This document shows positions 1 to 40,624 of a stretch of DNA of 64,000 bases, in pieces (within the stretch, counting starts at the first letter, position 1; each line of letters starts with the position of its first letter). The DNA comes from Phoronis australis (Eukaryota; Animalia; Phoronida). The stretch covers positions 997,793 through 1,061,792 of the forward strand of contig NMRA01000004.1 of the NCBI GenBank assembly GCA_002633005.1, read 5' to 3'. The notes below the pieces were generated by a model. That model searched no databases and had not been told where the DNA came from. It saw only the letters and a list, made by a program, of their open reading frames with translations. Made by a program: the position numbers and the translations under genes.

Positions 1-284
1 CCAGTTGTAAGTTTTGATAAAACTATCCAGTTAGACCACCGCATAAAAAGTCGTGAAGTTACGACATTATCGTGAAATTATGCTCCAGGTCAATATTGTG
101 AACTCAAGTGAGACTAACACCGTCTGTTTTCACTAAGCCATTTCTGACTTCGTTTAGGAACGTCCTTTGTAGGTTTTTACTCCAAACTGGAAGGCAATGA
201 GACGCCGCACTTAGATTTAGCTCGGCGATGTCATGCGGCTTTAATTCCGGTAATACATGTAATGGCGCCAAAGCCTTGTCGTAC

Positions 285-383
285 CTGATATATGGAGTGT
301 TCGCAGGAATGTGGTATTTTGCACCTGGATCAAAATCTGCTTCGCTCCTCTTCACAGGTGGTGCTAGACCTTGGTATTTACAC
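285..383 (-). CDS. ACE: ACE exon 10 (gene continues beyond the left edge)
   Basis: Acceptor CGTACAG|G, donor AG|GTACGA; 99 nt, phase 2/2; [33 protein letters not shown]. Confidence 0.93.
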
Positions 384-2409
384 CTGTACGTGATAAATAC
401 TTAATGTTAGATTCCATCAGCCGAAAAAATATATTTTCGGGATGCCGTTGTTCATGTCAATCAAATGTCTTTAAAACATTTGCCCTACAGATTTTTAAAA
501 AACTAACACTGTGATTATTTTTCTAAAAATCCCGATGAAAGATTAGCACTCAAATATACTGACAACTCGCTGGTCCTTTGTGTTGGTATTTAAAACTAAA
601 ATTTTTCGTCTAACGAAATACACAGGGGTCATGTACGTTGAACAATCAAGTCAAAATCAAACTTATGAATTCCCGGACATAACGTTAGGCCCTGCGCAGA
701 CGGACAGCTACGAGTTTAACTGGCTCACCGGTCGTTAGCTCAAGTCATGACAAGAAATTGGAGTGCGACCACAAATGAATAAACTAGCGCTAGTTCTCTC
801 ACTTGTTCACGTCTTCACAGTGAGCTATCGGCTCATTCAACATTCATTCGAGGCAGTCAGATGAGCTCGTAGCACACCGTCTACGCAAGCACTCAAAGGC
901 GTTAAGCAATGACAACATTCCATTCACGAAGACGTGTAATCCATAGAGCAAGTTCCTTACGAGGAAAGGGAGTTCAATAAAGTCTTTGCAAGACATCGTC
1001 AAGGATTACAAACGAAGCACGTGATCACACTAGTTTCACTCGCGAGTATCTTGCGTCCACGGAACGCATCCCAGGATTGGCCTTTAAGAAGTATTTCAGT
1101 TAGCATATACCCAGCCTTGCCTGGCAAAGGTTTACTAACAACATACAATAAGTGTAATCAATGAGCTACCAAACTTGTTTACATGTAAATCTCTTTACAT
1201 TCCATTGAATACCTGCAAAATAAGACCGACAATTTCATGCATTTTGACAAATCACTAGCTTAACGTCAACACATTCGTTCTGCCTGGAAATGTTTGTTTC
1301 ACCAATCTTGAGTTGCTTTTAAACATAGGTATTGCATTTCAAAACCAGTGATGATACATGCTTGGGGCGAAAACAGAGCCATTACTCTACAATCGGAAAG
1401 TTATTCCATCGATAACTGACGGCCTGCACTCAAGCCTACTCGGAGGATATTCTCATCAAGCGCGGATACGGTGTCATTGTTGTTATATTTAAGGATGCCA
1501 CGATGGGTTAAAAATGGCCAACTTAAAAGTAAGACCCCATAGAAAACAAGAAGCCGTCAGCAACTTGCCTTACTCCACAACTCGATTTTTGTGACGTAGA
1601 CGCAAAATTGAGACAGTAGAGCTGGACTGCAGCCACAGTCAGTTTGCACTACTCCATTCGGCCTATGCTGGGTTTGGCGACAGTTTTTTGGGGTTGCATT
1701 GGAAGTTGTATTATTGAATTTGAATTGTTCGTGTTTGTGAACAGAATGGTAAAGAGGAAAGTCCATTTATTCAATTGTGCATTTTCTTTTCTTCAAAATG
1801 GCGGCCTCCTGCAGCATTTGACTAGTGATGTTTACCGACTGATGAGTCTTTCAAAAAGTCCTAAAACAATCCAAGGTTGTAAAATCGTTTGCATGGCACA
1901 CCTTTATAGCCAATTTATGTAATTTTAAGAGAATTTGACTTGAGAACTTATTGTAGGCTTATGCTGTGCATCAGTAGGGATGTGGTGATTATTGGCTCAA
2001 AAATGACAGTTTGCATTTTGAACATATTTTTGGAGCCTCGCTTTCTTTACTGGGTAAATGGACTAAAATAAGCAACAGCATTAACTTTCTGTGATCATAG
2101 GCAGTGTTTTGATGTTTGCTCGATTCATATCTGTCAACAGAGTGGGATATCTGTAAGGTAGAGCTTCCCAGGCAAAATTGACCGCGAACTCTGCAGTAGC
2201 CTGGCTGCCTCCTACGTGAAATGAGATGTCCCGATGTAATAATTATGTTACCGAAAAAGCAGTCAGTTTAACTTTAATAAAGGTGTTCGGACAAGGGACA
2301 ATCATAAGGGGCATCTCGTATTGCTACGCTGCGGGAATACAAAAGCCGTACGAGAGGGGGAACGCCTCGACTCTCTAGATCACCTCATCTGCACTGTATA
2401 ATTAATTAC

Positions 2410-2554
2410 CTTAGGTCCCACCACTTTTCATTGTACTTGGTGTCGGGTGTCTCTCCACTGAAAACACTCCATCGCCACTGATCCATGAGATAACCAAATG
2501 GTATGAATGCGATTTTGTCCAGAGCCATGCTTAGAAGAAAGTTTAGGTCACTCT
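2410..2554 (-). CDS. ACE: ACE exon 9
   Basis: Acceptor CTTCAG|AG, donor AG|GTAATT; 145 nt, phase 1/2; [49 protein letters not shown]. Confidence 0.93.
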
Positions 2555-3311
2555 CTGAAGAAAAGAGTTTCTTATCATTTAACCAAAACCACAATAACTG
2601 GAATAAAGATTCGACTCTTGTTACATATTTGGAAAAATGTAACTTGATATCGGTTTCACCACTTTACATAAGTTAGATACTTAAATAAATAATATGCAAA
2701 CTTATTACATCAAGCAGGCTTCCGAATCTTGATAAAGGCCCACGGCACCTAGGCCCATGGATGTACCTTGGATCCATATTTAAAATCCGTAAAGTTTGCA
2801 GGGATTCTCAAGATGAACGTTTAACAAGACCAGGGAGTGAAAAACAGGTGGCAGATGTATGAGAAACAGGCCATAATAATTAGTTATTTCACACTGTTTT
2901 TAAATTTTCTTCCCAATAAACTTATCTTCCGCACGGTACCATAGACTAGGTATATGGGATATTATTCCCCGTCGATTTCATTCATAGTTTACGGAAAATG
3001 TTCGAGTGACTGGAACGTTTTCCCGCGAACTATGCCAGGTCCGAATATACGAAATGGGGATCAGAAACTACTCGTAAGTTACATGTATAATCCACTGACG
3101 AGTCATTTATGCACCTGAAGCAATAAGGCGGCTAAACTCCCGAAAGTGAAGTGGTGCCCTGATCAAACGCTAGACGGAGCACGAATACAAAAACATACAT
3201 TTTTGCAGATAACAGCACGCAGTCCCTACCTTACAACACAACATTAAGTTATACTTTCAGTGAAAAATCAACAACAAATATACAGTCCAAGACTTATTAG
3301 AAGTACCATAC

Positions 3312-3410
3312 CCCTGTCATCTTCCACGTTGTCCAATAAACCAATTTCTTTCAAATGTTTTGGGGTGGCAACCGACAGCGCCAACACGTCTCCGACTGCT
3401 TCATGAAATC
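3312..3410 (-). CDS. ACE: ACE exon 8 (third zinc ligand, GFHEAVGD)
   Basis: Acceptor TTCACAG|GA, donor G|GTATGG; 99 nt, phase 1/1; [33 protein letters not shown]. Confidence 0.93.
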
Positions 3411-4527
3411 CTGTGAACAGCATACACCTAATTAAGCTTACAATTTGACCAATTGAAAGTGGGACCAAACGTCATATCAAATTGGTTTCCAGGTAACGTT
3501 TTTTAAACCATCGACAGCAAGTCTCTGATTTGCACAGAAGATATTGCCTTTCATACGTTTTCAAAAAATTTCCACTTGAATGTATAATGATATAATGATA
3601 CGCATGTCGTACAATTGTTTAACAGTACACGTCGTACGGAATAAATGTATCGACATAAAAACTTTGATGGAGTAAGAAATTAAACTAGGAGTTATCACAG
3701 TTACATTAACTGTTTCACTTTCAAAACAAAAGACGCCAGGAAGAAAAAGATGAAGCACAAAACGATTAACATAACATTGCCAAATCCGCGTGCTACAGAT
3801 ATCTGGACAGGCACATGTAAAGCGGTAAGTGGGGGGGAGAGACGGGAAGACGCCGTGAATAGAACAATACAGCCATACGGTGCAGGAACATGCGGTTGTG
3901 TGAAGACATCAATCTAGTGAAAAGAAAAGGCTGGAATAGGAATACATTAAATTTTAGAGATTCTCCCCATTTAGTAATTATCACGATAGAAAATTCATAA
4001 AAAGTACCACAAGACAAACTACTTCCAACATGACATCGCTTGAAAATAGATTTTTGATGAAAAAAATTTAAGGTCGACAGGAAGTGTAATTGAACTTTTT
4101 GAACAGGGACAATATGACACAAGAGACTTAAATAGCGAAATAAAACAAATGCATAGGCGTTTGCGCATTTGACTGCGTGCGCATGTTCTCAGCAGTCGCC
4201 GTTTTGTCAACAGGCACTGAAAGTTTATGCCCAGATCTTTAAGAAACAAGGCCGGCATTATAATCCTGGCTCGATTTTTTTCAAAATAGGTAGAATTTTG
4301 TTATTTTTTGACTCAGCACATTTTGGCAGTGACATTTGATAGCCACTAAACTTGACTTTGTATGAACTAAATCGACACTGTTAGACCAGTGGTTGGCAAA
4401 GTGTTTTGATTTTTAGACCGCCTAGTGAACTCTTTTGTCTGCCGTCGAGCCCCTGTGACCAGTTACAGTAAGAACAACAAAGTCTACTTAACATACAACT
4501 TTTTCAACAATAAGTTAGCGAGAAGGA

Positions 4528-4543
4528 TGCCCCCTAGTGGCCA
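4528..4543 (-). promoter_or_regulatory. CTCF-like motif
   Basis: TGGCCACTAGGGGGCA on the minus strand matches the CTCF core; motif match only. Confidence 0.4.
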
Positions 4544-6164
4544 CTACAACACATTAATATTTGGCTGATTATTAGTTAGGTTCATTAAGTCTCAAATCAC
4601 CACGCTCCTCTGGGTTTACTTGGTTTAGTCAAATAGTATTGGAGTGACCAAATCCTACTTCCACCGTGTAGGACCTGGGAAACGTGATCAGAAATGGCTT
4701 GACTACAGCAGAAATCTTGGGATACTTGCTCGTACTATTTACACTGGTCATGTAGTCTGCAAAACTGTGATTTCGTCACCAGGTGAACACACATAAACAC
4801 TATATCAACACGTTCTTCCTATAGGTCAGGTTCAATCTTTGTGCTTTCTATTCCTATCATTCATCGACCCCCCCCCCNCCCCCCCCCCCTGAAATGTCAC
4901 CGACCACCAAACGAACCCCCTGGTTATTGTCGACCCTCAAGGATCTTAACGACCCTGGGGGTCCATAGAGACACCCTTAACGACCACTACTGTATGTTAG
5001 ACAAGCCCAAAGTTCTACCTGCTGAAAACGAAGTAAACGATATCCTTAATGCTCTAACAACGGACCAACATTAGTGTGTTACGTGTAAAGTAACCGACAT
5101 CGTAGAGCTGCATGGAGAAACTTATCTTCTTCATGGTTGATAGTTTCCAAAAATTTAATACATTTCATCCAACGCGCACAAGAAGTTGTTGAGGCCTCAA
5201 AAGAGCAATTCCTCTTGTGACATAAAATAAAGTGTCTGCCTAAAATCTTTGTGGTACCATCGACAGTAAAAACATCAGTATGCATGAACGACGTAATGCA
5301 TCTACCACCAGATGCCGCAACGAGTGTCAAAATGGTTGAATTGTAATTGTTTCAGTTATTCAAATTCCATACCTACAAGATCATTTCTTACATTTTGAAT
5401 AACAAAATATGATGGCCGTAGGGACTTAGAACTATAGACGGAGCTCATAAAAACGAAACTCTGTAAAATTTATTCAGGAAGGTTAAATTAAAAGCTTTTC
5501 AACATTCTTCAATTGACATGCACTAACACTCGTCACAACCACGACATTCAACTGCAGTGCATGCGTGACTTAAGATAAATCTCAAGCTTTGTTCGGTGTT
5601 ATTGTAGTCTTACAAAAAGAGTAACGACGGTAATCGAATGTTATTGATACAATTATGCCAATTCGTGACACTCATGTCTAACGGTATTTGTAACTATGGC
5701 TTCAATTCCGACATCCCGGATTCAACTCTCCTATTTTCGGAGACAGAAAAACTTATTGTGTAACCGATCTATTTTGCGAACGTTAGGACCGCTTACACAA
5801 TTTTGAGCTGAGTAAGGGTAAGGTGGAGATTTATCATGCCTCACTCAGCTTTTCAAATTTGATAATGTCTTAACTGCAACTGAGTCACTCTACAACAGTA
5901 GGTCTAACACTGTAGGCCTATTGGTATCAGAATGACAGGTGGTACACTAATCTTAATGTAGTGACTACAATGGCAACGGTGCACAACCGTGGAGCAAGTG
6001 TCCTACTCCAGTCACACAACCGTGTGGGTTAATGCCGTAGAATCACTGAAGGCATTGTCTCCGGGAGCTTAGTAGCTTTACTTGCAGATTATAGGTGTGG
6101 TGCCTCACTGCGTGTGTGCTAAAATGACATGCCATCTCTCGGTAAAAGCTGACACTACAGTTAC

Positions 6165-6289
6165 CTGCGTTAGCACCATCTCGAAACACAACCGGAAGGT
6201 GTTTGTACTGCAGGAAGTATTGTATGTGACCCATCTCGTGATGTGATATGACAAAAAACTCCATGGTGATGTCCGAGCACTGCTGAATT
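6165..6289 (-). CDS. ACE: ACE exon 7C (HEXXH exon, variant C)
   Basis: Acceptor CTGATGGTAG|A (weak pyrimidine tract), donor GCAG|GTAACT; 125 nt, phase 2/1; IQQCSDITMEFFVISHHEMGHIQYFLQYKHLPVVFRDGANA. Confidence 0.88.
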
Positions 6290-6504
6290 CTACCATCAGA
6301 ACATTTCATAAACATTTGTAAGTCCTTTTAGCGGGGAAGGCCTAATCAGTGACTTGTAACAAGCATCATGACAACGTGGTACTCATGACTTACACGACTT
6401 TCTGTCTGAATTTCTGCACTCGGATATTTCCGCCGGTTCAGCACAGCCAACCAGCTAAGACATCTGATTGTCTTACAAGCCGGAAGTCATTATCGAGAAT
6501 CAAC

Positions 6505-6651
6505 CAGCCTCCCGTTCAGTAACGCTAGGACCTCGCTAAAAAGCGAGATTACGTGAGATATTGCCGTGTTATTTAAATGAAAACACGTGACTTTGACTAG
6601 GTTTTAGCTAGGTCCTAGCGTAGGTCCTAGCGTCTACTGAACGCACGCCAG
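6505..6651 (+). mobile_element. Short foldback MITE family A (between exons 7B and 7C)
   Basis: CGTTCAGTAACGCTAGGACCT ... AGGTCCTAGCGTCTACTGAACG inverted arms; homologous copies at 19134-19272 and 37463-37619. Confidence 0.8.
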
Positions 6652-7236
6652 ATGTCTCTGCCAGTGCACCGGGATCGAACTGGCGCAGTAAATCAAGTGA
6701 CATTGAAGATCATTATGAAGGAGCAGTACCTGTCTATACAGCCAGATGGCAGCAGTAGTCATCGGCTCCACGTGACTGGTCTATTTGGGTTTGCGATTGT
6801 GTCTCATTTCTGGGTGTAAACAGTGATGGAAACACAGACGCCTTAAAGGTGAGATACTATAAAATTAAAAATACACACGGAATTGTTCTCGACACCTCGC
6901 CAACGGTTAAGTATATTAATTTGGAAAGTAAATAAACATTAGCCGATGCATGTCGAACCGCTGTTTCTTTGTCTTAGTTAGAAACTACAACATTGAATGT
7001 AGACAAAATATTTGACATGCGTCATGCCTGGTACATCAGAAGTTACGAAGTGTGTTTATTTGGAAACGAAAGTGAAAACTGCCAAGCAATGCAAAGAAAG
7101 TCTGTAGATAGTTAATTAATTTTCGTTACCAAAAGCCGGTCAACAAAATCAACTAACAACACGATGGACAACAATAGACGAACGACTAAAAGGATGCCTC
7201 GCATACGGTTTGGGATCCTTAAAAAGATGGGTTTAC

Positions 7237-7361
7237 CTGGATTAGCTCCACCCCTCAGTTGAGGGGGCAGGTGTTTATATTGCATAATATACTGGATGTG
7301 TCCCATTTCATGATGAATCAAGACCAAATAGTGCATTGTCACCTGTGTGCAAGCCGTTACT
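7237..7361 (-). CDS. ACE: ACE exon 7B (HEXXH exon, variant B)
   Basis: Acceptor TTCTTACAG|A, donor CCAG|GTAAAC; 125 nt, phase 2/1; VTACTQVTMHYLVLIHHEMGHIQYIMQYKHLPPQLRGGANP. Confidence 0.88.
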
Positions 7362-8985
7362 CTGTAAGAAGTACCTGTCATAAGTAACCACAGGCCAGTG
7401 CCACTTCCGTGCAAACGGTAATGAATCCCGTAATGACGCAAAGCAATGGGATCGTGTAATTTCAAAGTCAAGAAAACATACGTTCGCCGGGATCGTAAAC
7501 TGACGATGACCCAAAGTCACAGCATCTGATCTGCGAACTTGGTCCTTGCAGAATTCGGCCGAAGCCGGGCAGCAAGTACGTTTGTAAGTCAGATAAGGTC
7601 TTGATCAATTCAGCATTCTTGATTTAGTGCATTATTACTGTACAACTAAAAAATCTTTAAAGACTTTTATCAATCTCAAGTGCATTATTAAATACTAAAC
7701 CGGAAGTGACGGGGCATATTTCGATGTGTCCGAGTAAGCCACGCTCTCATATAATTTGTGCCGTTTTCCAGTTCCGTTTTCAATAAATAAAATGACGTCA
7801 ACAGAATACAGTGAATACTTCATACAAATGAGGTTGGTCTTTAATTACCCCTTCAGGGCAATTGTCAGGGCTTTGTTATTTGGCCAGTCAAACTACATCA
7901 CGTCTGAATTAAAATCCAGTTGTCATTATTGAAATAGTCTTTTAAAAAAAGATGTTTAATATAGCCTAAAGCAGCATTTCGCCCAATGGATCTGGCTAAA
8001 GTCGAAAATCGAATTACAGTAAGTCTTATAAACTGGGTCAAAAAACATTCCTTACCTAGATTGGTTAATATTTCCGTTACCAAAAAGAACATTGAAACTA
8101 CAAGTATTAGCGATTTAATAAAAAAATCTCACAGTTAATTGGGTTTCGCCAACCCCAACTTTCGAATTTCAAAATGGCGCACGTATTTGTGAGTCTCCAG
8201 CCCAGTCGGATGATGGCAAATGTTCTTTAATAAGCTCATGAGCGAAGACTTCAACATAGCCAGCTAAACAGCCGTGAAATGTTCCGTTAACACCGTGTCA
8301 AATATACACAATTGACCAAAAAGCTGTTTAAATACGGTAACATTGATATCCGGCAGCAATGCTTGTAATCTTTGACCAGGGAATGATGAGCCTGCCACCA
8401 TGATTTCCGACACAGTCAATTTAACTGGCCATGTGGTACGCTCTCTCACCTACTGAAGAAAGGGGTGCGCGGTCATTTCTGTCGATCACGAAAAACACTG
8501 TCTTGTCGATATATGCATTGTTTACTATTGTCAGTGTTTCAATAAATTCATACGCCACCCATTTCCCTAGAATTTAATAGAAGTACTACCTCGGGGGGCA
8601 TGCGGTATATAATAACTCTGTGCGTCGCTGAGACAACAGTTCTACTAGTATTTGCAAGCTGCCAAATGCTACAAACATTTTATATTTCGAAGACCAAGCA
8701 AGCATAAGCTAAAGAAATCGTCGCATCGGGTAGATGTCACGTTACCTGAGAGAATATACCTCTGGAATCCCATTGTTCAGTGAATTGATCTAAGCCTATG
8801 CTACAGATACATGTATGCACTAATTTGAGCTAGTAATCTGCGCTGAGCAAAATAAGACATACCTGTCTCGAGCGCACGTGCACATGATTGCAATTTTCCG
8901 AACGGAACAAAAAGCTACTACTAAATCATCGCTGAACGTAATTACGCATCCTTTTTAAAAGCGCACGCTTCTGTTTATTGTCTTT

Positions 8986-9420
8986 CAGTGGCCGGTTGCA
9001 TGAAACGGTCCAAATAGGGACTCAGCTAAGCTCCCTAATTCTTTGTGCGTATTTGTGTTTTATGGTTTCACAGATGAAATGTTTTCTATCATTTCATCTT
9101 CATTATGAGCTCCTCATTGATTAATGACATTTTCTAATAAAATAACTAAAACAGAGCCCAGAGTTCATTGAAAATAAATAGTGGCTCAATCCTTAAATTG
9201 GAGGTGTTGCATGAAAAGATCCCTACTTTTTTCGATAATATTGACAATTCAGCGTAGAGTTCACTCTCAATTTGTATCAAAGTCAAAAGTTGACTTAGAA
9301 ATGAAACTAAAACAATGCAAGAAAGGGCAATCGATGTTTTCACAAGTCCAAAAATACGCAGTAGATTTAGGGAACTTAGTTGAGTCCTTATTTGGGACTG
9401 TTTCATGCAACAAGGCACAG
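8986..9420 (+). mobile_element. MITE family B (CAGTG termini; between exons 7A and 7B)
   Basis: TIR CAGTGGCCGGTTGCATGAAACGGTCCAAATAGGGACT / AGTCCTTATTTGGGACTGTTTCATGCAACAAGGCACAG; related copies at 23275-23856 and 25131-25486. Confidence 0.75.
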
Positions 9421-9777
9421 AACTCCTGCGCGCCAGAAAGCGAGAATATTAGAGAGTGAAAACTTGTAAAATTCCATGCTTCGCTTGTAATGCAGTGGCG
9501 ACATCTCAACTTCCGACTCAAGGAGGAACTAGCTTTACAGAACGCATCCGTGGGCTGACATGCTCAGCAAATGAACTTGCAGGTCTGCTAGCTCAGCAAG
9601 AAGTGTGCAAAGGGCATGCTCGTTAGACTGTAGAGAGGCGCAGTGCTGCCTTGATTGGACAGGTCCTACTCCGAAACGCGTCGTAATCGCGTTTAGAACT
9701 TGGAGGCTTAGTGTAATCGCGTGCAGGTGCCACGGTGCATGTGATGAGAGAGAACAGTGGTTCTAACCCCCCGCTAC

Positions 9778-9902
9778 CTGGATTAGCCCCTCTTCTGAAA
9801 TTAAGCGGCAGTGTCTTATACTGGAGGTAATATTCAATGTGGCCCATCTCGTGGTGAACAGTTATGAGGTCCTCCATGGTGATATCTGTGCACTGTTTAA
9901 TT
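9778..9902 (-). CDS. ACE: ACE exon 7A (HEXXH exon, variant A)
   Basis: Acceptor CATTTCAG|A, donor CCAG|GTAGCG; 125 nt, phase 2/1; [41 protein letters not shown]. Confidence 0.93.
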
Positions 9903-11212
9903 CTGAAATGTGACAACTGAAGTAAAGCGTGCACGTGATTCACCACCAGATGTCCTACTAGGCAAATCTGGTTTTGTCACAGTGAAGGAGTGATGGCTGG
10001 TTTCTGCGTGAATAAATAAATTATTTAACCAATAAAGACATGCAAGCAGATTAGTGGGATAGCGATTATTCCTGTGAATCGTGTCTTTAGTCTTAAAGGG
10101 ACATTAAACCTACTTTACAAATTCATTACAAAGTGGGTTAAATCTGTAAGCATGACTAGCACTTGAAGAGAGTTAATTGGCTGTTGGCGGGAAAGACCGC
10201 TCACCTCGAACCACGGGATCCATTTTTGACGTAATGAAGAAGTGTTTTGGTTAAACGTAGATATCTCTCAGAGAAGTTGCGTGTAAGGCTGCCAGTTGTG
10301 TAAGTAGCGGACAACGATCAACTGGTTTAGTGTTATTTTAATTTTGATTGTTGGTATGACTTCAAAAACATTATTCGTCAATTAACCTAAACGGCGCGAT
10401 GTTACTGTTGCGTTTAGCGTATGCCTGTCATAAAATGGTACCTAGTGAAACCAAAAGTTATACACGGCCGAAACTTAGCACGAGTTTAATGTGGAATTGA
10501 TTGAATGGAAACTACACTGAAATACAAAGTTCTAATGACGTCAGTCACATACATGACAACTGAGATTAAGTAATGAGGTGCTCGACACAGCGCCTTCGCG
10601 TTTGCTAAGACTTGTCACAAACGCTAACAGTAACAAGATACAGTAACCCTGCGCATGCGTCTTGAACCTAGCGCTAACATACGTGGCAACGGATGTTGTA
10701 ATTTCGTTGGCGATTTTTTTTAACTTGGGGTATTTCAGAAACACAGGCTTGATCAAGCTTTTTACAAGCATATAAAGTTTATCGGACAAGAAGATTTATT
10801 GAGATTTATGCCCGTTCTGTAGTATTCCCTATTACTTGAGTGAGTGAAGAGACGCAAAGGGGAGCGTCTGGCTTCACTTAGTGAAAAAGACGCGTGAATT
10901 TATTGACATAAAGACACGAGGCGTGTACTTTAGTGATCTACGTTTGTCCTGGTCCAAGATACATTGCGTTGTTGAAGTTTGTTTTCTAGTTAACAGAACT
11001 TGCAAACTCCATACTATTTCGACATCAACGGGCGGAGTTACAGCGGCTTCGCTGCAGCCATCTTTTTTGTTCCATGAGGTCGAGATGAAGTTGCAGCAAA
11101 TGTCCCTCAAACGAACATTGTAACGCCGTCGTTTATTAAAATCCTGACTGTACATTAAATGATTCTCCATTTTATACGAGAGCACGGTCCAATGGATTCG
11201 TTAAAATCTTAC

Positions 11213-11382
11213 CGAAAATCTTTGCCATTGTAGAAATCCCAAGCCGAAGCGTGGCAGACGACTTCTCTTCCTTCCGGTTTCACTATCATCGAATGGTTCC
11301 AAAATGCGGGTGGCATTGGTAGTAGCCCCAATGAAGTGAAAAACTCGTCAGACAATTCGAACATTTGCATCGCCGTGTATTT
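11213..11382 (-). CDS. ACE: ACE exon 6 (absent from ORF track)
   Basis: Hand translation: acceptor TTTACAG|AAA, donor CG|GTAAG; 170 nt, phase 0/2; [57 protein letters not shown] with the CHASAWDF motif. Confidence 0.93.
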
Positions 11383-12425
11383 CTGTAAATGAAAGAGATA
11401 TTGTTACCACGTTTCAAGTTCAGGTGGATTAGCAGATCTCATCGTCATAGCTTCATTTATCAGAATACCTATTCCAATATACTGAGATCATTTCAATATT
11501 TTAAATCCAAAGCGGTCAAACTTCACAAAAAGATATTTAACGTAAATCAACCTAGTCGCTAACAAAATCGCCGCCAAAGCTGAATGTAATTTAACTTCAT
11601 TTTTACAGACTTAGAAAACTCTGATAGTAAAACTTAAACTCAGCTAATTTATGAAGTGTTCCTATCTTGGATACATCTTTGGATTGATGAAGCACATCCT
11701 TTTTGAAATGCGGCAAGTGTCCATTTAAAAGTACATTATCCATATCGTTTCCAGCATCACGGGAAGACATATGTCTTGTTACATAAATTACTTTTATGTT
11801 GGCATCAAATCAACCTTCTACGTAATTATAATTACTTTACAAATTAGCAATTGTTTGATTAAAGTTATGTAGGACCATAGAATAATTTGCTATCATGGCT
11901 AACTTCGAAAAATATCTCAGAATGAAATACCACCGTCCCGCCGCACCATTTCATGGGTTTTTAAGACACCCGCAATTTTTCATTGGAATAAAAATCGTTG
12001 TCGAGCGTTTTTGTGTGTTCGAAAAAAATAGCTGTCGGGGCGTTTTTGTGAGTTGCGGCGAAACTTCCTCCTTTGCATTTTGGCATGTAGCCAGATGTCT
12101 CGTTTTTAATCCGGATGTCAATCCAGTTATCCGGTTTTTTTATTCTCGAATGTTGATTGTCTTTCCGTTATTAATATTGTATTTCTTTAGTAACATAGCA
12201 ACAGCAACAATTAATGTTCCAATGTTCCTTTGTCACGGTAATTCACACTATATGTATCAGGATCACTAATTTTTACTTTCAATTCTAAAGAAATGCGCTT
12301 ATTTCCAAACGTCTGTGTAAAGTCAGAGTTCTACAATGCAAACACTGTTGTGTGCTATCCACAGTATACGTCTATGCCACATAATAGATAAATTGGAGAA
12401 TATTATACATCCAGTTGATAGATGT

Positions 12426-13034
12426 CAGCAAAAAACCTTAAAACTAATACTGGACTTACATTTCAACTGAGCGACGTTGCGTCCTCATCGCGAGGACTTT
12501 CACAAGTCATTGCCGTGGTGGTGTTCGGCTGATGACGTAATCGGCGGGAAAAGAAACACCGTGTACGGTCCCAAGTCTTGGAGAGCTGGCCGAATCTGAA
12601 TCCGCCTTGACAATTCAAGGAAGGGCATTCAACACCTTCGTAGATAGATTCCTTGACACCACGTTTGAACCAGTTTTCCTTACGATCCAACATCGTACAT
12701 CACTGGAGTCAAATGAATGTTTTGCAGTGTTGATGTGAGTGAAAACAGCGGAATCATACGTGTCCCCATAACTGAGCCGGCGGTGCTGGTTCATTCTGCT
12801 TTTGACAGACATCAAGGTTTCACCCAGGTAGGACTCGGTACACCCCTTGTCCTCACGTGTATTACCATAAACGACATTGGAGACTTTTTTCTTGGGAACC
12901 TTGTCTTTTACCCGGACTAGTCGGCTCCTGAGAAAGTCGATTACGTCATCAGCCGAGCACCACCACGGCAGTTGCTAGTGAAAGTCCTCGTGATAAGGAC
13001 GCAAAGCCCAGTATTAGCTTTAATTGTTTTGCTG
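12426..13034 (-). mobile_element. Penelope-like element remnant (GIY-YIG 3' end with inverted pLTR arms)
   Basis: Frameshifted KDKVPKKKVSNVVYG...SYLGET...SRMNQHRR...SAVFTH...HSF...LDRKENWFKRGVKESIY...PSLN; the ~110-120-bp arms 12426-12545 and 12935-13034 are inverted copies. Confidence 0.75.
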
Positions 13035-14240
13035 CATAATAGATGTTTACCCATTTTTTATATATCAGAAAACTCTTACTGGCAAATTCTTGATAGGTGC
13101 TGTAATTAGTTTGTCACATTTTTTGTTAATGTCAATGCATCCTGAATTTTTGCTGAAGAATATAAATGTATCAAACGGCCTCTAAGTCCAATTAATATAT
13201 AAAGATGTATAATTTTGGAAGAATCACTGACCAAATTCTTCACAGCAACTGTGAGGGATCTACACTCTAAAATCTTTGTCTGCCGGCAATATTTTGAATC
13301 ATTGGAACATACTATTTTCCTGCTGGTTTAACTAGTTATTTATACAACCTTTCGGTTTTATTTCATTTTTACGTTACTATTGCACAATAGATTAATTGAC
13401 ATTACGCTTAATTAAATAACTAATTAGATAATTAACCAGTCAGTTGGTACACGAGGGCTTTCACTATTACACTATATCATTTTCCGCATTTTCGTAAGTA
13501 AAACTATTGTTTTTATAATGTAAAGTATTTTTAAAATTGTCTGCTATGCAAAATGATAATTATTTATGAAGTAAATTGTTTATTCCTTGCTTCTGATATT
13601 ATCGAAATCAAGAGCTTTTGAAGAGCTTTCTTAAGATATGATTCTTATGCAATTCGGTCGAAAAACTGTAGAGTTATGAAAAGTTATACTGACACTATTC
13701 CAATTGGCCTGGTGCTAACATACAGTACATGTACGTACATGTATGTACATTATATATTTGTTATGACTTGTCCTAAGTACATGATTTTGGTATCGTAGCA
13801 GAGCTCAGGAGATGCTTCATCATACCGATATATTTTAAGGAAATTGTAAACTTTCGAAATTGTTGTACAACAGGTTCCTCTAGATGGCTTTACGTTACGT
13901 CTACCAGTTAGGTAGCGGTACCCACGGGCGGCTTACCGAATTGCGGAACACCTGGAGCTATGATGACGACGGAAACGGCATGACTAAGGTTGATGAGGGT
14001 CAAAAAGACAACAATCTCGCGAAAAGGCAGGACTTTACAAGCACGTGATCACACGAACTTCCTTAGCGAGATTCTTCAGTGCGTCTCTCTACCCTGGTCA
14101 ACCGGTGAGACATCTGATTGGTTTGAAAGAAAGCCAAGCAGTCAAAAACCAATCAGATGCTTAGCCGGTTAACATACCGGATGAACTGGCATGAGCAGAC
14201 GGTAACATACTGTAAGTAGATGTAAAACGAGAACACTCAC

Positions 14241-14338
14241 TCTTTCTATAAGTGTAGGCGTTATGTCAACGCTTTCTTTATCCGGGTATGGTCGAATAAA
14301 GCTGAGCAAATTACTCCATGTCTGTGCCCACATGTTTC
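14241..14338 (-). CDS. ACE: ACE exon 5
   Basis: Acceptor TTTTTCCAG|GA, donor AGA|GTGAGT; 98 nt, phase 1/0; GNMWAQTWSNLLSFIRPYPDKESVDITPTLIER. Confidence 0.93.
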
Positions 14339-14975
14339 CTGGAAAAACATTGCAATGGTATCTAGGTCCATGTGAGTTACACGAGGCCGAACTATCCATG
14401 TCGTTCAAGTACAAGTAAGCAGGGCAACATCGACACGGACGTCGGACAAGTGATTGATTTTTTACGGTAGGCCTATCAGACGTTGTTGGACTGACAAGCC
14501 CTGTACAATATTCAGGAATGAAATGTCGGTGAGTCCACGGCATCACTTCACGATTGCTTTACCCAGAAACTGTGCGGCTGCATTACTTTTTTGTCGGACA
14601 CAATGTGTGCAATACAACATGCCCTAGGCGTAGTACGAAGGACGCCTGTAGTAGTGGGAGGAACATACCGGGTAGGCAAACGCTTCCCCGTTCGGCATGA
14701 TTTCATAACCTCACCTTCCCGGTCGCTTCCAGTTTTGCTTCCTTCCTCCCATAATAGAATGCAAACCTGCTCCCCAGCTGCCAAGGCCTATAAATGCACT
14801 AGGAAAGCAAAGTATCTGTACGAATGTACAACTGTGGGTCTACTACGGAAATGATGTGAATTAGATATCGAACTGTCGAGCAACATGACTGGGATGTCTA
14901 AATGTCTGTACCAATATCTGTTAGAAAGCTACGTGTACGTATGAAAGACACGGTGTGACAATGGAAGTTCCGTAC

Positions 14976-15173
14976 CTAGGAGGTGAGCTGGAATGTGTCC
15001 GCCCTGAGGAATCTTGTCCTCCCCGTGCTTTGCTCTTAACTTCTTCCTCACAAACGCGTGCAGCTGTTCGTACAAAGGTTTGAGCTGGTCGTACAGTCGG
15101 ATAAGGTCTGCTTGGAAATCATAGCCAGGAACGTCGTATGATGATCGCCAAAACACGCCCGTGTCTTTATAGC
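14976..15173 (-). CDS. ACE: ACE exon 4
   Basis: Acceptor ACTACAG|GC, donor G|GTACGG; 198 nt, phase 1/1; GYKDTGVFWRSSY...QLKPLYEQLHAFVRKKL...IPAHLLG. Confidence 0.93.
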
Positions 15174-16304
15174 CTGTAGTGGATATATGCATTGCTGGTT
15201 TCATTCATGAACGTTTACTTGTTAATACATTTACACCGTAAGCATATGACTGCTATAGTTTAGATAGAGGCTTTCATGGGTGTTATAGAACCCTTAGCAC
15301 GTATCACTGATCGTTAACTGTACGGAGAGGAAGTGTTAACACGGAAGAATCAATCAACCACCGCTCTTCTAAACATAACCGCAAAGACCAGTATCTCTGA
15401 CTACACGCAGATGTCATTCCAAAGAGCGCTGAACAGCAGCAACACGTACATGTAAGCACACTTAGTGCTGCCAGCCGAGAGGCTGCAGCACATACGGTGG
15501 TACTCTACAGGTAGTGCCACAATACAGTTAGACTGTGGCCACGTGCTATTTGCACTGTTTAGAAATTACCTAAATATTTGAGGCAGAACAGGTTTGGCGG
15601 CAAGATGGGACGTGTGCAATGCCAGGAAAATGTGAGAATTGAACTGTACCTCCTTACCAAGCACTACGTAGTTCCTGTGTAAGTGTGGTGCGGCCTAGTA
15701 AGCGTTCGACTATCGGTCAGGATCTTTTGGAGAGTAATAAAATATATACATGTTCCTCACGCCATAACTGTGGAATTACGAATTAGTTGGGATACTGCGA
15801 TTTCTCCCTGTCGTGTCAAAAACGAATGCGAACGCAACCTTTGAAGTAAGCTGTGAAATGATTCATATATAATTACAATACCAGGTTGTGCAACGATTTT
15901 GAAAAAAAAAACAAATGGTTTTGTTCTAACGTATTTGTAAGCCACTAGAAATATTTCTTTTTCGTAAAAGTATGCAGACGTATTATCACAAATTAAAATT
16001 CTTATCTCTGGAGAGTTGCTCACCCCTTTCTTCACTACACACCTTGCAATGATACGTCATTCCTATATTTCAAAATCGATTGGCCAATACTTTTAACATT
16101 TCTCATTTCCATGGAAAACATCTTTAACCAATGACATCATTCTAACTTTGAATTCCAGATGGACAATTGTACATTTTCTCGGCGTTACGTTTTCACAATG
16201 CTGACACTCAGTCGGTGAAGTTTCAATTGTTTTTCCAATCAAGCGGGAGGATCCACGTTATTGTCAAACGCACACGCTAATATGAAAATGTCATGTTATA
16301 TATT

Positions 16305-16469
16305 CAGGGGCGGATCCAGGATTTTGAGTTTGGGGGGCAGGGCAGAGTATTAGCCAGGATTTTGGCCGTCAGACATTCGCACCCCCGTACTTCCAAATGG
16401 AATCTGGGAGAATTTTAAGGGGGCCTTGGCCCCTTGCCCGTCCCCCCCCCCCCCTTAAATACGCCACTG
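16305..16469. mobile_element. GC-rich MITE, CAGGGGCGGATCC type, 5-bp TSD
   Basis: CAGGGGCGGATCCAGG ... AAATACGCCACTG flanked by ATATT on both sides. Confidence 0.65.
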
Positions 16470-18110
16470 ATATTTGCTCTACCCATCGAATACCAAGTAG
16501 GTCTCGTTCCGAAACTGACAATATATTTTATGAAACTGCCTTTTTTGGTCAGCTGAAATGTCCGTGTGTGAAATTGGAATACCACAATCACTGGAACTCC
16601 GGGCTCGCTCATGCAATCTCAAATTAAGCAAGCGGCCGTGTTTGTGGGAAACTATTACAGCTGTATTACTACAGGTTCCGCCTGAATCTGTAAACATTTG
16701 AAAGCACTGAATGAGTGTGATTCACGAGTGAAGATGCCTCGTTGATGATGAGATACTAATAAGTAAGATGCCGGGTTTAAGTCAAAGGTTGTGTTGCAAA
16801 ATTTGAGCCACTGGACAAGTTTGGTTGTTGCTTGACGTGAAATACATTGTTTGACAAAGGCAACGTCACGCGCGTTACCATCAAACACTTCTAAGGACTC
16901 AACAATCAACATCGAATGAAAATGACACGCGATTTGTCAATTATGGAGTTAAGTATCGACTTAAGTTTGTGTGCGCGGAACCTTGGACCATGCAACCGAT
17001 CAATTTTCGGGACAAATTCCGAGTACACAGATTAGACCCCGTCCACTGGGTTCCAGGGTATAATGTATGTACTCGAAACTCGACTCAAAACTTGACCATT
17101 CATATGTCATGCAAAACCACACATCGCGCTTCTAATCCTTTTTATGATATTCGACGTTTTTTCCGCAATCATGTATGGTGGAAAAGTTGCATCGCAGCGC
17201 GTAATGCCTTTAATATTCTCACCACGACAGAAACCAGTTACCCTATCCGGCTAAGCCGAGAGCAGCTTACTAATAGTTTATGGCTTTCTGATGCTCAGCG
17301 TGTGATGTACCACGGACAGTAAGGTGTGTGTATCTCGCCTTGCGAATTGCTAGCACCGTACACGGAATGGGTTGAATTTCGAGTTTGAGCTTGGCGAGTA
17401 CGAGTCCAGAGAATAGATCCTGGTCTTAACAGTGTTTATACACGCCAAACATTCGGGCCCTATGCCCCCGTAACTACTGAAGTCAAAAGGTTAAAATACA
17501 AACTTTTGAAATGCAACATTTTCTTTACCGATACGGCTTCCATTCATACACCTATTCACAAACAAAAAGCATCGACGTCAGAATCGTATTAGCGTATTCA
17601 TGAAATGGAAACAAAATGTAACTTTTTTCAGTCGTCACGAAAACGAAACTAATTGCCTTGGGATTCAGCACACAGTGTAGTCTATATATTTGAAGGCAAG
17701 TCTTCTGGGCCTTTTTCATATTGACAAAAGAGCTCGTGTCTTCAGAAATCGCTTTTAAACAACAACCGTCTTGTTTCCTCAATGTGTAAAGGTCGAGAAT
17801 AAAATCATATGAAACAACTGCAGTAGTTTGTTTATATAATTTTGTGTCTAATTGATAAATGTATTCATCCGTGACAACTATCTCCGTTTAACACTTTTTA
17901 GCGTATTGACACGAATGCGATGTAGCCTACGCAAAGAACAAGGTAGAATTTCGTACACGCAAGAATATCGGTAGGGAAGCTAGTTTGATCACTTGCTTGA
18001 GTTAGCGATAAAACGCAAAGTATTGCGTGTTCTTGCATTTTCGCGAGATTCTCGCCTCTACCGAACGCATGCCAGGTGCACAACTGTACTTCGAAGACAT
18101 GACACCATAC

Positions 18111-18345
18111 CGTTTAGGCCAGCGGCTTCATTCGACAGCTCAACAAACTCCTTGTACTTTGGCCTTATTTGAGGTCCAGTGACGTCACGCCACCCTTTCC
18201 ACGCCCATAACAATTCGTCGTATGACGCACTAGGATTTGCCATTAGTCTCGTCAGGTCGGGTTCGAGCGTATTCAATTTTCCGTTCTCATCTTTCACTTT
18301 TCCAGTGCTGTATATTGTCTCCATGTCCGTCACTAACTGCTGGAG
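18111..18345 (-). CDS. ACE: ACE exon 3
   Basis: Acceptor TTCAG|CTC, donor G|GTATGG; 235 nt, phase 0/1; MET-IYSTGKV...LEPDLTRLMA...YDELLWAWKGWRD...YKEFVELSNEAAGLNG, typical ACE motifs. Confidence 0.93.
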
Positions 18346-18907
18346 CTGAAAGAACAGAAATCAATCAATGCTTCAAGTATTTTTGCCCAAAACTATGTAG
18401 TTTCTATCACTAACTAGCTCAAGTTACTCTTTGGAGCAGACAGGAAATTTGTTATCCTCGTCAAACTTCAAACTTGGGTGTAAGTCTAAAACTTTCTTAA
18501 TTTCCCTTCTTCAGCATGTGTGACAATAGGTTTGGGTGAGTTATTCGACGGCTCAGAGATATTATAACCTAGATTCTGTAATTTTGGTAGGAACAATAAT
18601 TTTTTTTCACAAATATTTGGTCTAACAAAAACGATTCTTAACACAAATTTGAGGTCCAACAGACAACTTTAAAGCCTTCCATTTTCTTTCAACAGTTCAT
18701 CCTCTCCTATAACGTTAGGAGAGCACTAAAAATGACTGCAAACACTTGATGTTCGAGAAATAGTATCATGCTGGTGCTAGCGGATGCTCCACGACTCTTC
18801 ACCACTTGCGACAACCAAGAAGACATCTTCCTGATATAATTGATCAGTCTAAAGCTCACGTTGGTTCCCGCTGCTGTAATGATTTTGTAAACGAGGTGTT
18901 CACATAC

Positions 18908-19075
18908 CTTTTTGTACTTCTCCTTGTCTACTTCAGCCAGTTTTGCCGAGCCGATGTCGCTAATTTTAGACAGTTGTCGTTTGATGAACGTGTCGTTGAA
19001 GCCAGACCAATCAAACATGGAAGCATTTTTGGCTGCCTCCAAGTCGAAGTCCGCTTCCACAAGGGTGAAGTTGAG
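18908..19075 (-). CDS. ACE: ACE exon 2
   Basis: Acceptor TTTTTTTAG|CTC, donor AAG|GTATGT; 168 nt, phase 0/0; LNFTLVEADFDLEAAKNASMFDWSGFNDTFIKRQLSKISDIGSAKLAEVDKEKYKK. Confidence 0.9.
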
Positions 19076-19133
19076 CTAAAAAAACGAAGAGGATATCTCA
19101 AGGTATAGACCAAGAAGCAAAAATCAAACCACG

Positions 19134-19272
19134 CTCCCGTTCAGTAACGCTAGGACCTCGCTAAGTAGCAAGACATTGCGAGATTAAGTGAGATATTGCC
19201 GTGTCTTTTTGAATGAGAACACGTGACTTTAGCTAGAATTTAGCTAGGTCCCAGCGTTACTGAACGCACGCC
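19134..19272 (+). mobile_element. MITE family A copy
   Basis: Aligns with 6505-6651 end to end. Confidence 0.8.
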
Positions 19273-33831: not shown

Positions 33832-34936
33832 AGGCGAAGGCAACCTTTTTCCATGTCATTTTGAGCTAAAATAAGGTTGGTTGGTTATCCTAGACATATT
33901 TTCCACTTAATTACAGCTTTTCGTAATTTTATTAATTACTCGTCCGCTACTGCGGAAGTGACGTTTTAGGAGGCAAGCATTTCGCGCCAATTTCTTTTCA
34001 TATAGTCTGACTGTGAGAGCTGCCGAGTCAGTCATTGTTCTACCTCGGTTGTGTTAAGTTCCGTCGTCGTTTGCTTTCATTTACTAGTCAGTCAACATGC
34101 CACACTGTTGCTGCGTACCGGAATGTACTANGGGCCTTTAATCACTCCCACTACTCAATATCGCTGCAGGGCTGCTTAGAGGCTCTGGGCTGGAGAAAAC
34201 AGCACAGGGCGAATCACTACTGGTTTCAGGAATTGCACGCTCTGGGGTACGTTCGGAGGCACAGGTGACAGTAGATGAAGTGCCTCAACTGGCTCCAGTC
34301 ACTTTACTGGCCACAGCTCGCGAGGCTTCTCGCTTCAAAAAAGCACTTCTCGGGGGTGGCGACGGGGCACTGCCGGGAATCAACACAGACGGAATGGCAT
34401 CCTTCTTCAGGCGTTGTTTCGCAGGGACCTTCGTCAGTTCAGCGTACAAATCCCTTTCGTAAGCGGAGGGCAAAAAGTGCTTGCCACACACACGGTAATT
34501 CGCCACTGCTTTGTACATGTACGTTACGTGGACGGGTAACGCTGCCTTCTGCACACGAACGAGCCAAGTACGGCGAAGTCTGTCATCCATCGGAAAGCGA
34601 TGCAAAGGTACTCCCAAAGCGCGCGTGAGTCGATAATTAGTACAGTCCGGTACGCAGCAACAGTGTGGCATCTTGACTGACTAGTAAATGAAAGCAAACG
34701 ACGACGGAACTTAACACAACCGAGGTAGAACAATGACTGACTCGGCAGCTCTCACAGTCAGACTATATGAAAAGAAATTGGCGCGAAATGCTTGCCTCCT
34801 AAAACGTCACTTCCGCAGTAGCGGACGAGTAATTAATAAAATTACGAAAAGCTGTAATTAAGTTGAAAATATGTCTAGGATAACCAACCAACCTTATTTT
34901 AGCTCAAAATGACATGGAAAAAGGTTGCCTTCGCCT
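33832..34936 (-). mobile_element. Kolobok-like non-autonomous DNA transposon carrying a THAP ORF (copy 1)
   Basis: TTAA on both sides (33828-33831, 34937-34940), AGG...CCT termini, ~299-bp near-perfect TIRs (33832-34130 / 34638-34936). TTAA + RR..YY termini + THAP fit the Kolobok superfamily. Confidence 0.8.
34285..34671 (-). CDS. THAP-domain ORF of the transposon (truncated transposase/accessory protein)
   Basis: MPHCCCVPDC...LHRFP...W...RVCGKHF...RLKKDAIPS: C2CH zinc finger, conserved P/W/F and AVPTIF-like box. Confidence 0.8.
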   Translation of the reverse strand: MPHCCCVPDCTNYRLTRALGVPLHRFPMDDRLRRTWLVRVQKAALPVHVTYMYKAVANYRVCGKHFLPSAYERDLYAELTKVPAKQRLKKDAIPSVLIPGSAPSPPPRSAFLKREASRAVASKVTGAS

Positions 34937-40426: not shown

Positions 40427-40624
40427 CTGCAGCTCCTGGTTGTAATCCGTAATATTTGTGTTGTAATTCCATGCTGCCAAAACACTATTGTAGTAAACTT
40501 CTTGAGCTCTCTGGTTGTACTGCTCCAACCAATCGCGCGCGACATTTTCGTCCGTAATTTTCTGCGCTTCCGTCTCCTGCAGCGAGTACGTGCAATACAC
40601 GAAAACGACAAAAACGCGAAACAT
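40427..40624 (-). CDS. ACE: ACE-like peptidyl-dipeptidase (M2 family), exon 1 (signal peptide + first helix)
   Basis: ATG at 40624; MFRVFVVFVYCTYSLQETEAQKITDENVARDWLEQYNQRAQEVYYNSVLAAWNYNTNITDYNQELQ with the ACE N-terminal motif W(N)YNTNIT; 198 nt, donor CAG|GTAAGT, phase 0. Confidence 0.9.

Follow-up and report, generated by a model that had tools for sequence, protein, structure and literature searches.

Three homologous zinc-helix exons, candidates for mutually exclusive splicing, in an ACE gene of Phoronis australis

Described routes to different ACE active sites and the phoronid locus

ACE is among the best-studied drug targets, and the difference between the N and C domains of the somatic enzyme of vertebrates rests largely on a few pocket residues. 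In that enzyme, whole-domain duplication has placed both active sites on one chain at once. Among genes with mutually exclusive exons, insect Dscam1 and myosin heavy chain provide the classic clusters. Here, we describe a 64,000-nucleotide stretch of the Phoronis australis genome (GenBank assembly GCA_002633005.1, contig NMRA01000004.1, positions 997,793 to 1,061,792; hereafter the window), the minus strand of which carries the first three quarters, counted from the 5′ end, of an ACE (peptidase M2) gene, as identified by tblastn with four ACE proteins and by Pfam. Three homologous exons, termed cassettes A, B, and C, lie between the single exons 6 and 8 of this gene. We consider it fairly likely that they are spliced mutually exclusively, giving up to three enzymes with different substrate pockets from one gene. 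Clusters of mutually exclusive exons are familiar, and a swap of the same cassette is already annotated in arthropods; thus, the locus is a new example and not a new principle. Its points of interest are a third cassette type, the occurrence outside arthropods, the match to the human N/C selectivity residues, and the fact that full-text literature searches, judged by title, returned no publication on exon swapping in ACE. The first-pass annotation of this DNA, made from the letters alone, had named earlier literature on the cassette as a reason to abandon its claim, and no such paper surfaced.

When the cassettes were aligned without gaps to human somatic ACE (chain 7q3y_A), cassette position n corresponded to N-domain residue 344+n. 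A, B, and C agree in the zinc histidines and the catalytic Glu; their differences fall in a stretch immediately preceding the helix (positions 10-15) and at positions 25, 30, 33-35, and 37. Positions 25 and 37 are the counterparts of N-domain Tyr369 and Arg381 and of C-domain Phe391 and Glu403; they are Tyr/Arg in A, Ile/Gly in B, and Phe/Asp in C. PMC2975193 describes the N-selective inhibitor RXP407 as bound by two residues of the S2 subsite, Tyr369 and Arg381, and traces its selectivity to the Phe391 and Glu403 that take their place in the C domain. The two human pairs thus reappear here as the Tyr/Arg of A and the Phe/Asp of C. Inhibitor contacts named in an excerpt of PMC5947662 include Val380/Thr358, Ser357, Phe391, and Glu403, of which Val380/Thr358 falls on cassette position 14 and Ser357 on position 13; what we say of positions 10-13 is by position alone. 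Furthermore, A scored higher against the human N domain (59.6 bits, versus 52.3 for the C domain) and C against the C domain (49.2 bits, versus 42.0 for the N domain); the corresponding values for B were 45.3 (N) and 43.5 (C). By residues and scores, A would be N-domain-like, C would be C-domain-like, and B would represent a third type. As the zinc histidines and the catalytic Glu stay constant while the pocket residues vary, the isoforms are predicted to have the catalytic machinery in common and to differ in the S2 pocket; the S1′/S2′ pockets probably differ among them as well. Unlike the vertebrate enzyme, the phoronid one is probably single-domain and would present one site at a time by exon choice, with the rest of the pocket identical.

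The first-pass annotation knew of no active-site exon swapping in ACE. For public annotation this does not hold: RefSeq has it in four moths, a crayfish, and a crab. Our isoform search used a library clustered at 90%, which is why no isoform pairs were present among the first 227 fetched proteins, and 30 protein clusters were then opened. In 6 of the 30, RefSeq holds equal-length isoform pairs that differ only inside the cassette. In the moths, the differences lie within residues 369-403: Choristoneura fumiferana (XP_073942651.1/XP_073942652.1, 17 differing positions), Danaus plexippus (XP_061377584.1/XP_061377585.1, 16), Achroia grisella (XP_059056708.1/XP_059056709.1, 14), and Plutella xylostella (XP_037962636.2/XP_037962646.2, 11). 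The decapod pairs are those of Procambarus clarkii (XP_045585497.1/XP_045585498.1, 9 differing positions within residues 366-401) and Scylla paramamosain (XP_063845955.1/XP_063845956.1, 7 within residues 369-399). One member has Phe25 with Asp/Glu37 and the other Tyr25 with a non-acidic residue 37 in five of these six pairs, and in 7 of 10 when all cassette pairs outside the phoronid are counted, these six included; among the 10, position 37 differs in all and position 25 in 9. The Phe/acidic and Tyr/non-acidic members of the arthropod pairs match C and A of the phoronid, respectively. In contrast to the three cassettes found here, the arthropod pairs are two-way, are known as automatic annotation only, and include no counterpart of the Ile/Gly type B; the phoronid, moreover, is an animal whose ACE is nearest to that of a chiton (65% identity across 445 residues, the best value for any full-length ACE that was fetched). 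The four moths probably share one origin, and the two decapods likewise, so that the independent cases of the swap are fewer than the pairs.

A similar arrangement is seen in the cricket Gryllus bimaculatus, where the gene of models GLH09197.1-GLH09200.1 has a tandem pair of diverged cassettes (Phe/Glu followed by Tyr/Arg in three of the four models, with Phe/Arg in the fourth, P0144). Unlike in the phoronid case, the models place both copies in a single protein, probably through an error of annotation. Gene models, then, may drop such cassettes or, as in the cricket, wrongly include two, and annotators should be warned of it. Three short open reading frame (ORF) calls from ENA/Logan (P0233, P0170, and P0230) each read through two diverged HHEMGH cassettes, with spacers of 15 residues in P0233 and 12 in P0170. 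Read-through spacers of these sizes would correspond to mini-introns of about 43 and 34 nt, which may be short enough for steric exclusion. In the clam Mercenaria mercenaria, two three-domain isoforms of 1823 aa each (P0124/P0401, isoforms X1/X2) show 18 differences within residues 1101-1138; this stretch lies outside the HHEMGH cassette, and another ACE exon seems to be swapped there. Bivalve and gastropod ACE-like models (P0004, P0123-P0126, and P0129-P0131; about 1800-1885 aa) have three ACE domains per chain, each domain with its own cassette type; they may be genuine three-domain enzymes or fusions of tandem genes.

Both here and in the annotated arthropod isoforms, the selectivity residues share one exon, which is exchanged whole. 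Many invertebrates may therefore adjust the specificity of ACE through splicing and not through a second domain. The phoronid isoforms would be natural, minimal "domain-swap" variants, with an identical scaffold and 14-18 residues changed, usable to test substrate and inhibitor selectivity. They also prompt one to ask what peptides the individual isoforms would act on in animals that lack a renin-angiotensin system. An ancient switch is conceivable, although we regard it as doubtful: an early bilaterian ACE would have chosen between a Tyr/basic-type and a Phe/acidic-type zinc-helix exon, the choice being kept, through mutually exclusive splicing, in moths, decapods, crickets, and, with a third pocket type, in the phoronid, while vertebrates would have fixed both types in their N and C domains. 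If it were true, exon choice and domain duplication would be two solutions to one functional split.

Structure, frame, and constraint of the three cassettes

Each cassette is exactly 125 nt long, with AG before it and GT after it. Read from the second base, A, B, and C give 41 residues each, free of stops, with HHEMGH, a Cys at position 4, and GAN near the end. HHEMGH is the form of the HExxH zinc motif in every cassette and, together with a downstream Glu in exon 8, would make up the M2 motif. That Glu belongs to an HEA stretch, located by translation in the constant exon 8, and is what we take to be the would-be third zinc ligand; the constant exon 6, which ends two bases into a codon, carries the Cys partner of the cassette Cys. 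Identities among the copies are 23/41 (A-B), 27/41 (A-C), and 23/41 (B-C) at the peptide level and 74, 83, and 76 of 125 at the nucleotide level in the same order, with tblastn E-values of about 5e-14 to 2e-17. The ORFs of A, B, and C match the Peptidase_M2 profile with 74.7, 60.4, and 61.9 bits, respectively (cut-off 23), at about positions 322-373 of 581. The likeness is that of the exons: blastn matches between copies end within them, and the 100-nt flanks on each side, compared without gaps, reach 21-37% identity, no more than chance would give. The introns between the cassettes measure 2416 and 947 nt.

All of this agrees with the first-pass annotation, whose account of three 125-nt AG/GT exons with an open frame, HHEMGH, Cys, and GAN proved right in every detail, whose peptide identities were recomputed to the same values, and whose flanking introns indeed do not align. 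The junction coordinates that it proposed are the true exon ends. Its remark that no other internal exon is duplicated also stands, as the other ACE exons each mapped once in the window by tblastn with the four ACE proteins. A permissive tblastn and blastn search of the window found no degenerate fourth copy, leaving exactly three. A short match to the donor region of B at 4611-4628 was considered as a copy remnant and rejected, as it comes without a coding remnant.

With exon ends defined by RNA, the reading frame remains open when A, B, or C is included alone and runs into a stop when none, any two, or all three are included. In these five non-single combinations, the stop falls 3 to 103 codons past the end of exon 6. 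The claim that only one-copy inclusion keeps the frame is thus upheld, translation stopping with 0, 2, or 3 copies. As in other tandem-duplicated exon clusters, the neighbors share length, phase, and splice-site type and are homologous, and the frame bars double inclusion. Exon length, splice-site and frame conservation, and homology are the criteria for predicting mutually exclusive exons to which the title of PMC3228551 refers; equal length, the splice-site pattern, a compatible frame, and homology are all present in this cluster.

The copies are old. The Nei-Gojobori proportion of synonymous differences (pS) between them is 0.85-0.89, which is saturated, and the nonsynonymous proportion (pN) is 0.21-0.30; because the synonymous differences lie beyond saturation, no dS could be obtained. 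Differences at codon positions 1/2/3 amount to 17/6/28, 13/7/22, and 16/7/26 among the copy pairs. A panel of 107 distinct ACE cassettes, vertebrate-biased since its members were collected with A as the query, has 12 invariant positions, and A, B, and C retain every one of them. When random substitutions were simulated in a simple scheme to the divergence observed, none of 20,000 trials each for B and C left both an open frame and these 12 residues. Saturated pS with low pN and retained invariant residues indicates that A, B, and C were translated for most of their history. Thus, the copies have been preserved as protein-coding over a time long enough for silent sites to saturate, and the earlier proposal of an old tandem triplication under purifying selection is borne out. 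The argument presumes that the copies diverged in place.

The copies have not moved equally far from the common ACE pattern. Mean identity to the cassette panel is 30.8 of 41 for A, 24.7 for C, and 22.8 for B; B is the most derived copy and has the longest branch in the cassette tree. An exhaustive protein search with B among 1.84 billion representative proteins gave 451 hits, and a word-index protein search gave 2 short, ordinary ACE fragments. The cassette nearest to C is that of an annelid ACE (32/41), and the protein search with C returned no match above 85%, over part of its length. The top ranks among the best 120 of the 601 matches to A were taken by multi-domain ACEs only, and a near-identical single-domain protein might rank below these 120.

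Cassette use in RNA, a possible mechanism, and competing explanations

RNA data were mapped to positions 250-19150 of the window. They comprised a contig set of 2015 (X1) and three stranded RNA-seq runs of 2026 (X2-X4), all under the same species label, and a joint was listed only if a run contained at least 3 reads for it. The stranded reads agree with a minus-strand gene. About half of the reads are 95-99% alike to the reference, which indicates that the animals are polymorphic. Constitutive joints are covered by 24-98 reads per run. The joint of exon 6 to A has 70, 26, and 68 reads in X2, X3, and X4, respectively, and that of A to exon 8 has 40, 33, and 75, in addition to an X1 contig. Exon A is the main spliced form, and the 6-A-8 form is present. 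The joint of B to exon 8 is covered by 2, 4, and 2 reads with anchors of 53-74 nt; the donor of B is a real splice site that is used with the exon 8 acceptor. Of the 156 listed reads into this acceptor, 148 come from A and 8 from B. No joint between two cassettes was listed in X2-X4 at the threshold of 3 reads per run. Of the earlier claim that one gene makes three peptidases, the A form is therefore established, and productive 6-B-8 use is only partly supported, being hinted at from the donor side; we infer the use of C. The RNA-seq check of junctions proposed at the time turned out the same way, with the 6-A, A-8, and B-8 joints found and the 6-B joint and both joints of C not listed.

How would one cassette per mRNA be secured? 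Transcripts with an early stop are removed by nonsense-mediated decay, an established rule. Skipping or double inclusion of cassettes would thus lead to an early stop and to removal, leaving mRNAs with a single cassette, which would encode the same catalytic core with a different substrate pocket each time, hence up to three enzymes. Productive 6-B-8 and 6-C-8 mRNAs would then be expected in some tissue, stage, or condition. Frame incompatibility is, as translation shows, a mechanism of exclusivity that is available at this locus. In contrast to some other clusters, steric hindrance was discarded, the inter-cassette introns being too long for it, and no outstanding docking/selector pairing was seen: a search for repeated selector-like arms found none. 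Duplex energies of 30-nt windows paired with the other introns, computed without a shuffled control, averaged −19 to −21 kcal/mol, and the best duplexes (−28 to −35 kcal/mol) include a poly-G run. The splice sites are all GT-AG. Pyrimidines occupy 14 of 20 acceptor positions in A, 12 in B, and 10 in C, and the donors of B and C are nearer than that of A to the consensus. Such a pattern would fit a strong default exon and two activation-dependent exons, and cassette choice would probably be set by the weaker acceptors of B and C together with regulators.

Several observations weigh against exclusive use of all three cassettes, the main weakness being that RNA support is thin for B and absent for C. 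Runs X2-X4 come from one study with the tissue unstated, and 18-19% of each run was read. At the threshold given above, no joint of exon 6 to B and no joint on either side of C was listed in these runs, and the contig set X1 shows the A form only. The B donor (7237) was also joined to a cryptic acceptor at 6856, with 0, 3, and 1 reads in X2, X3, and X4 versus 8 to exon 8; this joint (CT..AC, i.e., GT-AG on the minus strand) skips 380 nt within the B-C intron and looks like low-level noisy splicing in these samples. Moreover, the reads joining B to exon 8 could stem from A+B transcripts or from half-spliced pre-mRNA. The cluster introns (3405-9714) have a sense-strand depth of 4-8x, versus 0-1.4x in the introns at 881-2142 and 11608-13500, a sign that introns here may be removed slowly or late; half-spliced RNA may thus account for some of the B signal. 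Exclusive use is thus only partly shown by reads here. Furthermore, no B-like cassette above 72% identity was found among the 1.84 billion representative proteins, and the differing specificity of the isoforms is argued by analogy with human ACE. Even the constraint signal spans the whole time since duplication and is compatible with a recent loss of use.

Taken together, these points would suit a situation in which only A is in use, and B and C are once-functional, now unused relics whose rare splicing is noise that ends in decay. The dominance of A at the exon 8 acceptor, the cryptic joining of the B donor, the contigs of 2015, and the failure of the protein searches to find a B- or C-like cassette protein of a close relative all speak for it, as does the lack of a listed junction for C. 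However, B and C still have an open frame, the exact length, AG/GT ends, and the 12 invariant residues despite saturated silent sites, so that any loss of their use would have to be very recent. In addition, cassettes of this kind are ordinarily used at a low level or in particular tissues, and the annotation of moth and decapod genes has this exon as an alternative one. We therefore hold the relic explanation to be unlikely, though it deserves to be kept in mind. Early stops after every double inclusion and the raised read depth of the cluster introns could instead point to B and C as regulatory poison exons, the inclusion of which together with A would shift the frame, cause decay, and tune the ACE level with no new enzyme being made. 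This is improbable, as a poison exon needs no protein-level conservation, and an excess of third-position differences is seen here along with intact zinc ligands, Cys, and invariant residues; besides, no A-B, A-C, or B-C joint was listed.

The place of origin of the copies and their reality bear on the same question. C is nearer to an annelid ACE cassette (32/41) than to A (27/41), as would be expected if B and C had been copied fairly recently from diverged paralogous ACE genes and had inherited the traces of purifying selection from there. Yet each copy spans precisely the exon between AG and GT, and the flanks lack homology, as an old tandem duplication would leave them. The cassette tree (66 rows by 41 columns) had 1 of its 63 branches starred; in the approximately unbiased (AU) test, A+B+C as one clade was not rejected (p 0.788), and the constrained tree scored better. 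A recent paralogous source is thus very improbable. An assembly artefact, for which one might cite a long poly-G run (4851-4892, with an N at 4878) in the C-to-exon 8 intron, likely an assembly weak spot, has a negligible chance of being the explanation: the copies differ at 34-41% of their bases, whereas assembly duplicates are near-identical, and RNA from other individuals covers the inter-copy introns and has exon 8 spliced to A and to B exactly where predicted. Mutually exclusive use of A, B, and C remains the reading that we favor.

The ACE gene and other features of the window

Exon order was taken from the tblastn searches with four ACE proteins and from Pfam, and exon bounds from RNA-seq joints (Table 1). 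Ten minus-strand ORFs matched PF01401 (Peptidase_M2) in profile order, covering positions 2-488 of 581. The exon 1 ORF matched ACE N-termini by tblastn and profile positions 2-47. Beyond exon 10, the gene continues past the start of the window. The X1 transcript contig (3244 nt) begins about 250 nt before exon 2 and extends 1653 nt past exon 10; a single-domain enzyme fits this length, and the ACE encoded here is probably of that kind.

Table 1. Exons of the Phoronis australis ACE gene within the window, in order of transcription
Feature	Coordinates	Strand	Length	Remarks	Evidence
Exon 1, coding part	40427..40624	-		ATG at 40624, GT donor just after 40427	ORF with hydrophobic N-terminus, tblastn, Pfam
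Exon 2	18908..19075	-	168 nt		RNA joint 18345/18908, piece of X1 contig, acceptor read in sequence
Exon 3	18111..18345	-	235 nt		RNA joints
Exon 4	14976..15173	-	198 nt		RNA joints
Exon 5	14241..14338	-	98 nt		RNA joints
Exon 6	11213..11382	-	170 nt	constant	RNA joints 9902/11213 and 11382/14241
Cassette exon 7A	9778..9902	-	125 nt	main form	joints to exons 6 and 8, X1 transcript contig
Cassette exon 7B	7237..7361	-	125 nt	most diverged copy	donor joint to exon 8
Cassette exon 7C	6165..6289	-	125 nt		sequence only; no listed RNA junction
Exon 8	3312..3410	-	99 nt	constant	RNA joints 3409/9777, 3409/7236, and 2554/3312
Exon 9	2410..2554	-	145 nt		RNA joints
Exon 10	285..383	-	99 nt	canonical GT at 284-283	joint 381/2408; loose ends at 281 reading on into ACE

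Some further features were seen in the introns. The 21-kb first intron of the ACE gene contains a 131-residue ORF (34288-34680, minus strand) that matches a THAP zinc finger with 55.7 bits (cut-off 23.9) and could represent either a gene nested in the intron or the remains of a transposon. Three intron stretches of the ACE gene (about 6500-7190, 9084-9714, and 16025-16655) are covered by reads and contigs to a very high depth, on either strand and with numerous loose ends, and look like copies of expressed repeats or transposons; a 20-nt inverted repeat (6522-6541/6602-6621, 95% complementary) lies in one of them. Finally, run X4 alone contains a joint shifted by one base between exons 5 and 6 (11382-11383/14241-14242, ends TG..CT), with 29 reads versus 24 for the canonical joint; the probable cause is an allelic variant close to the junction, not another splice site.

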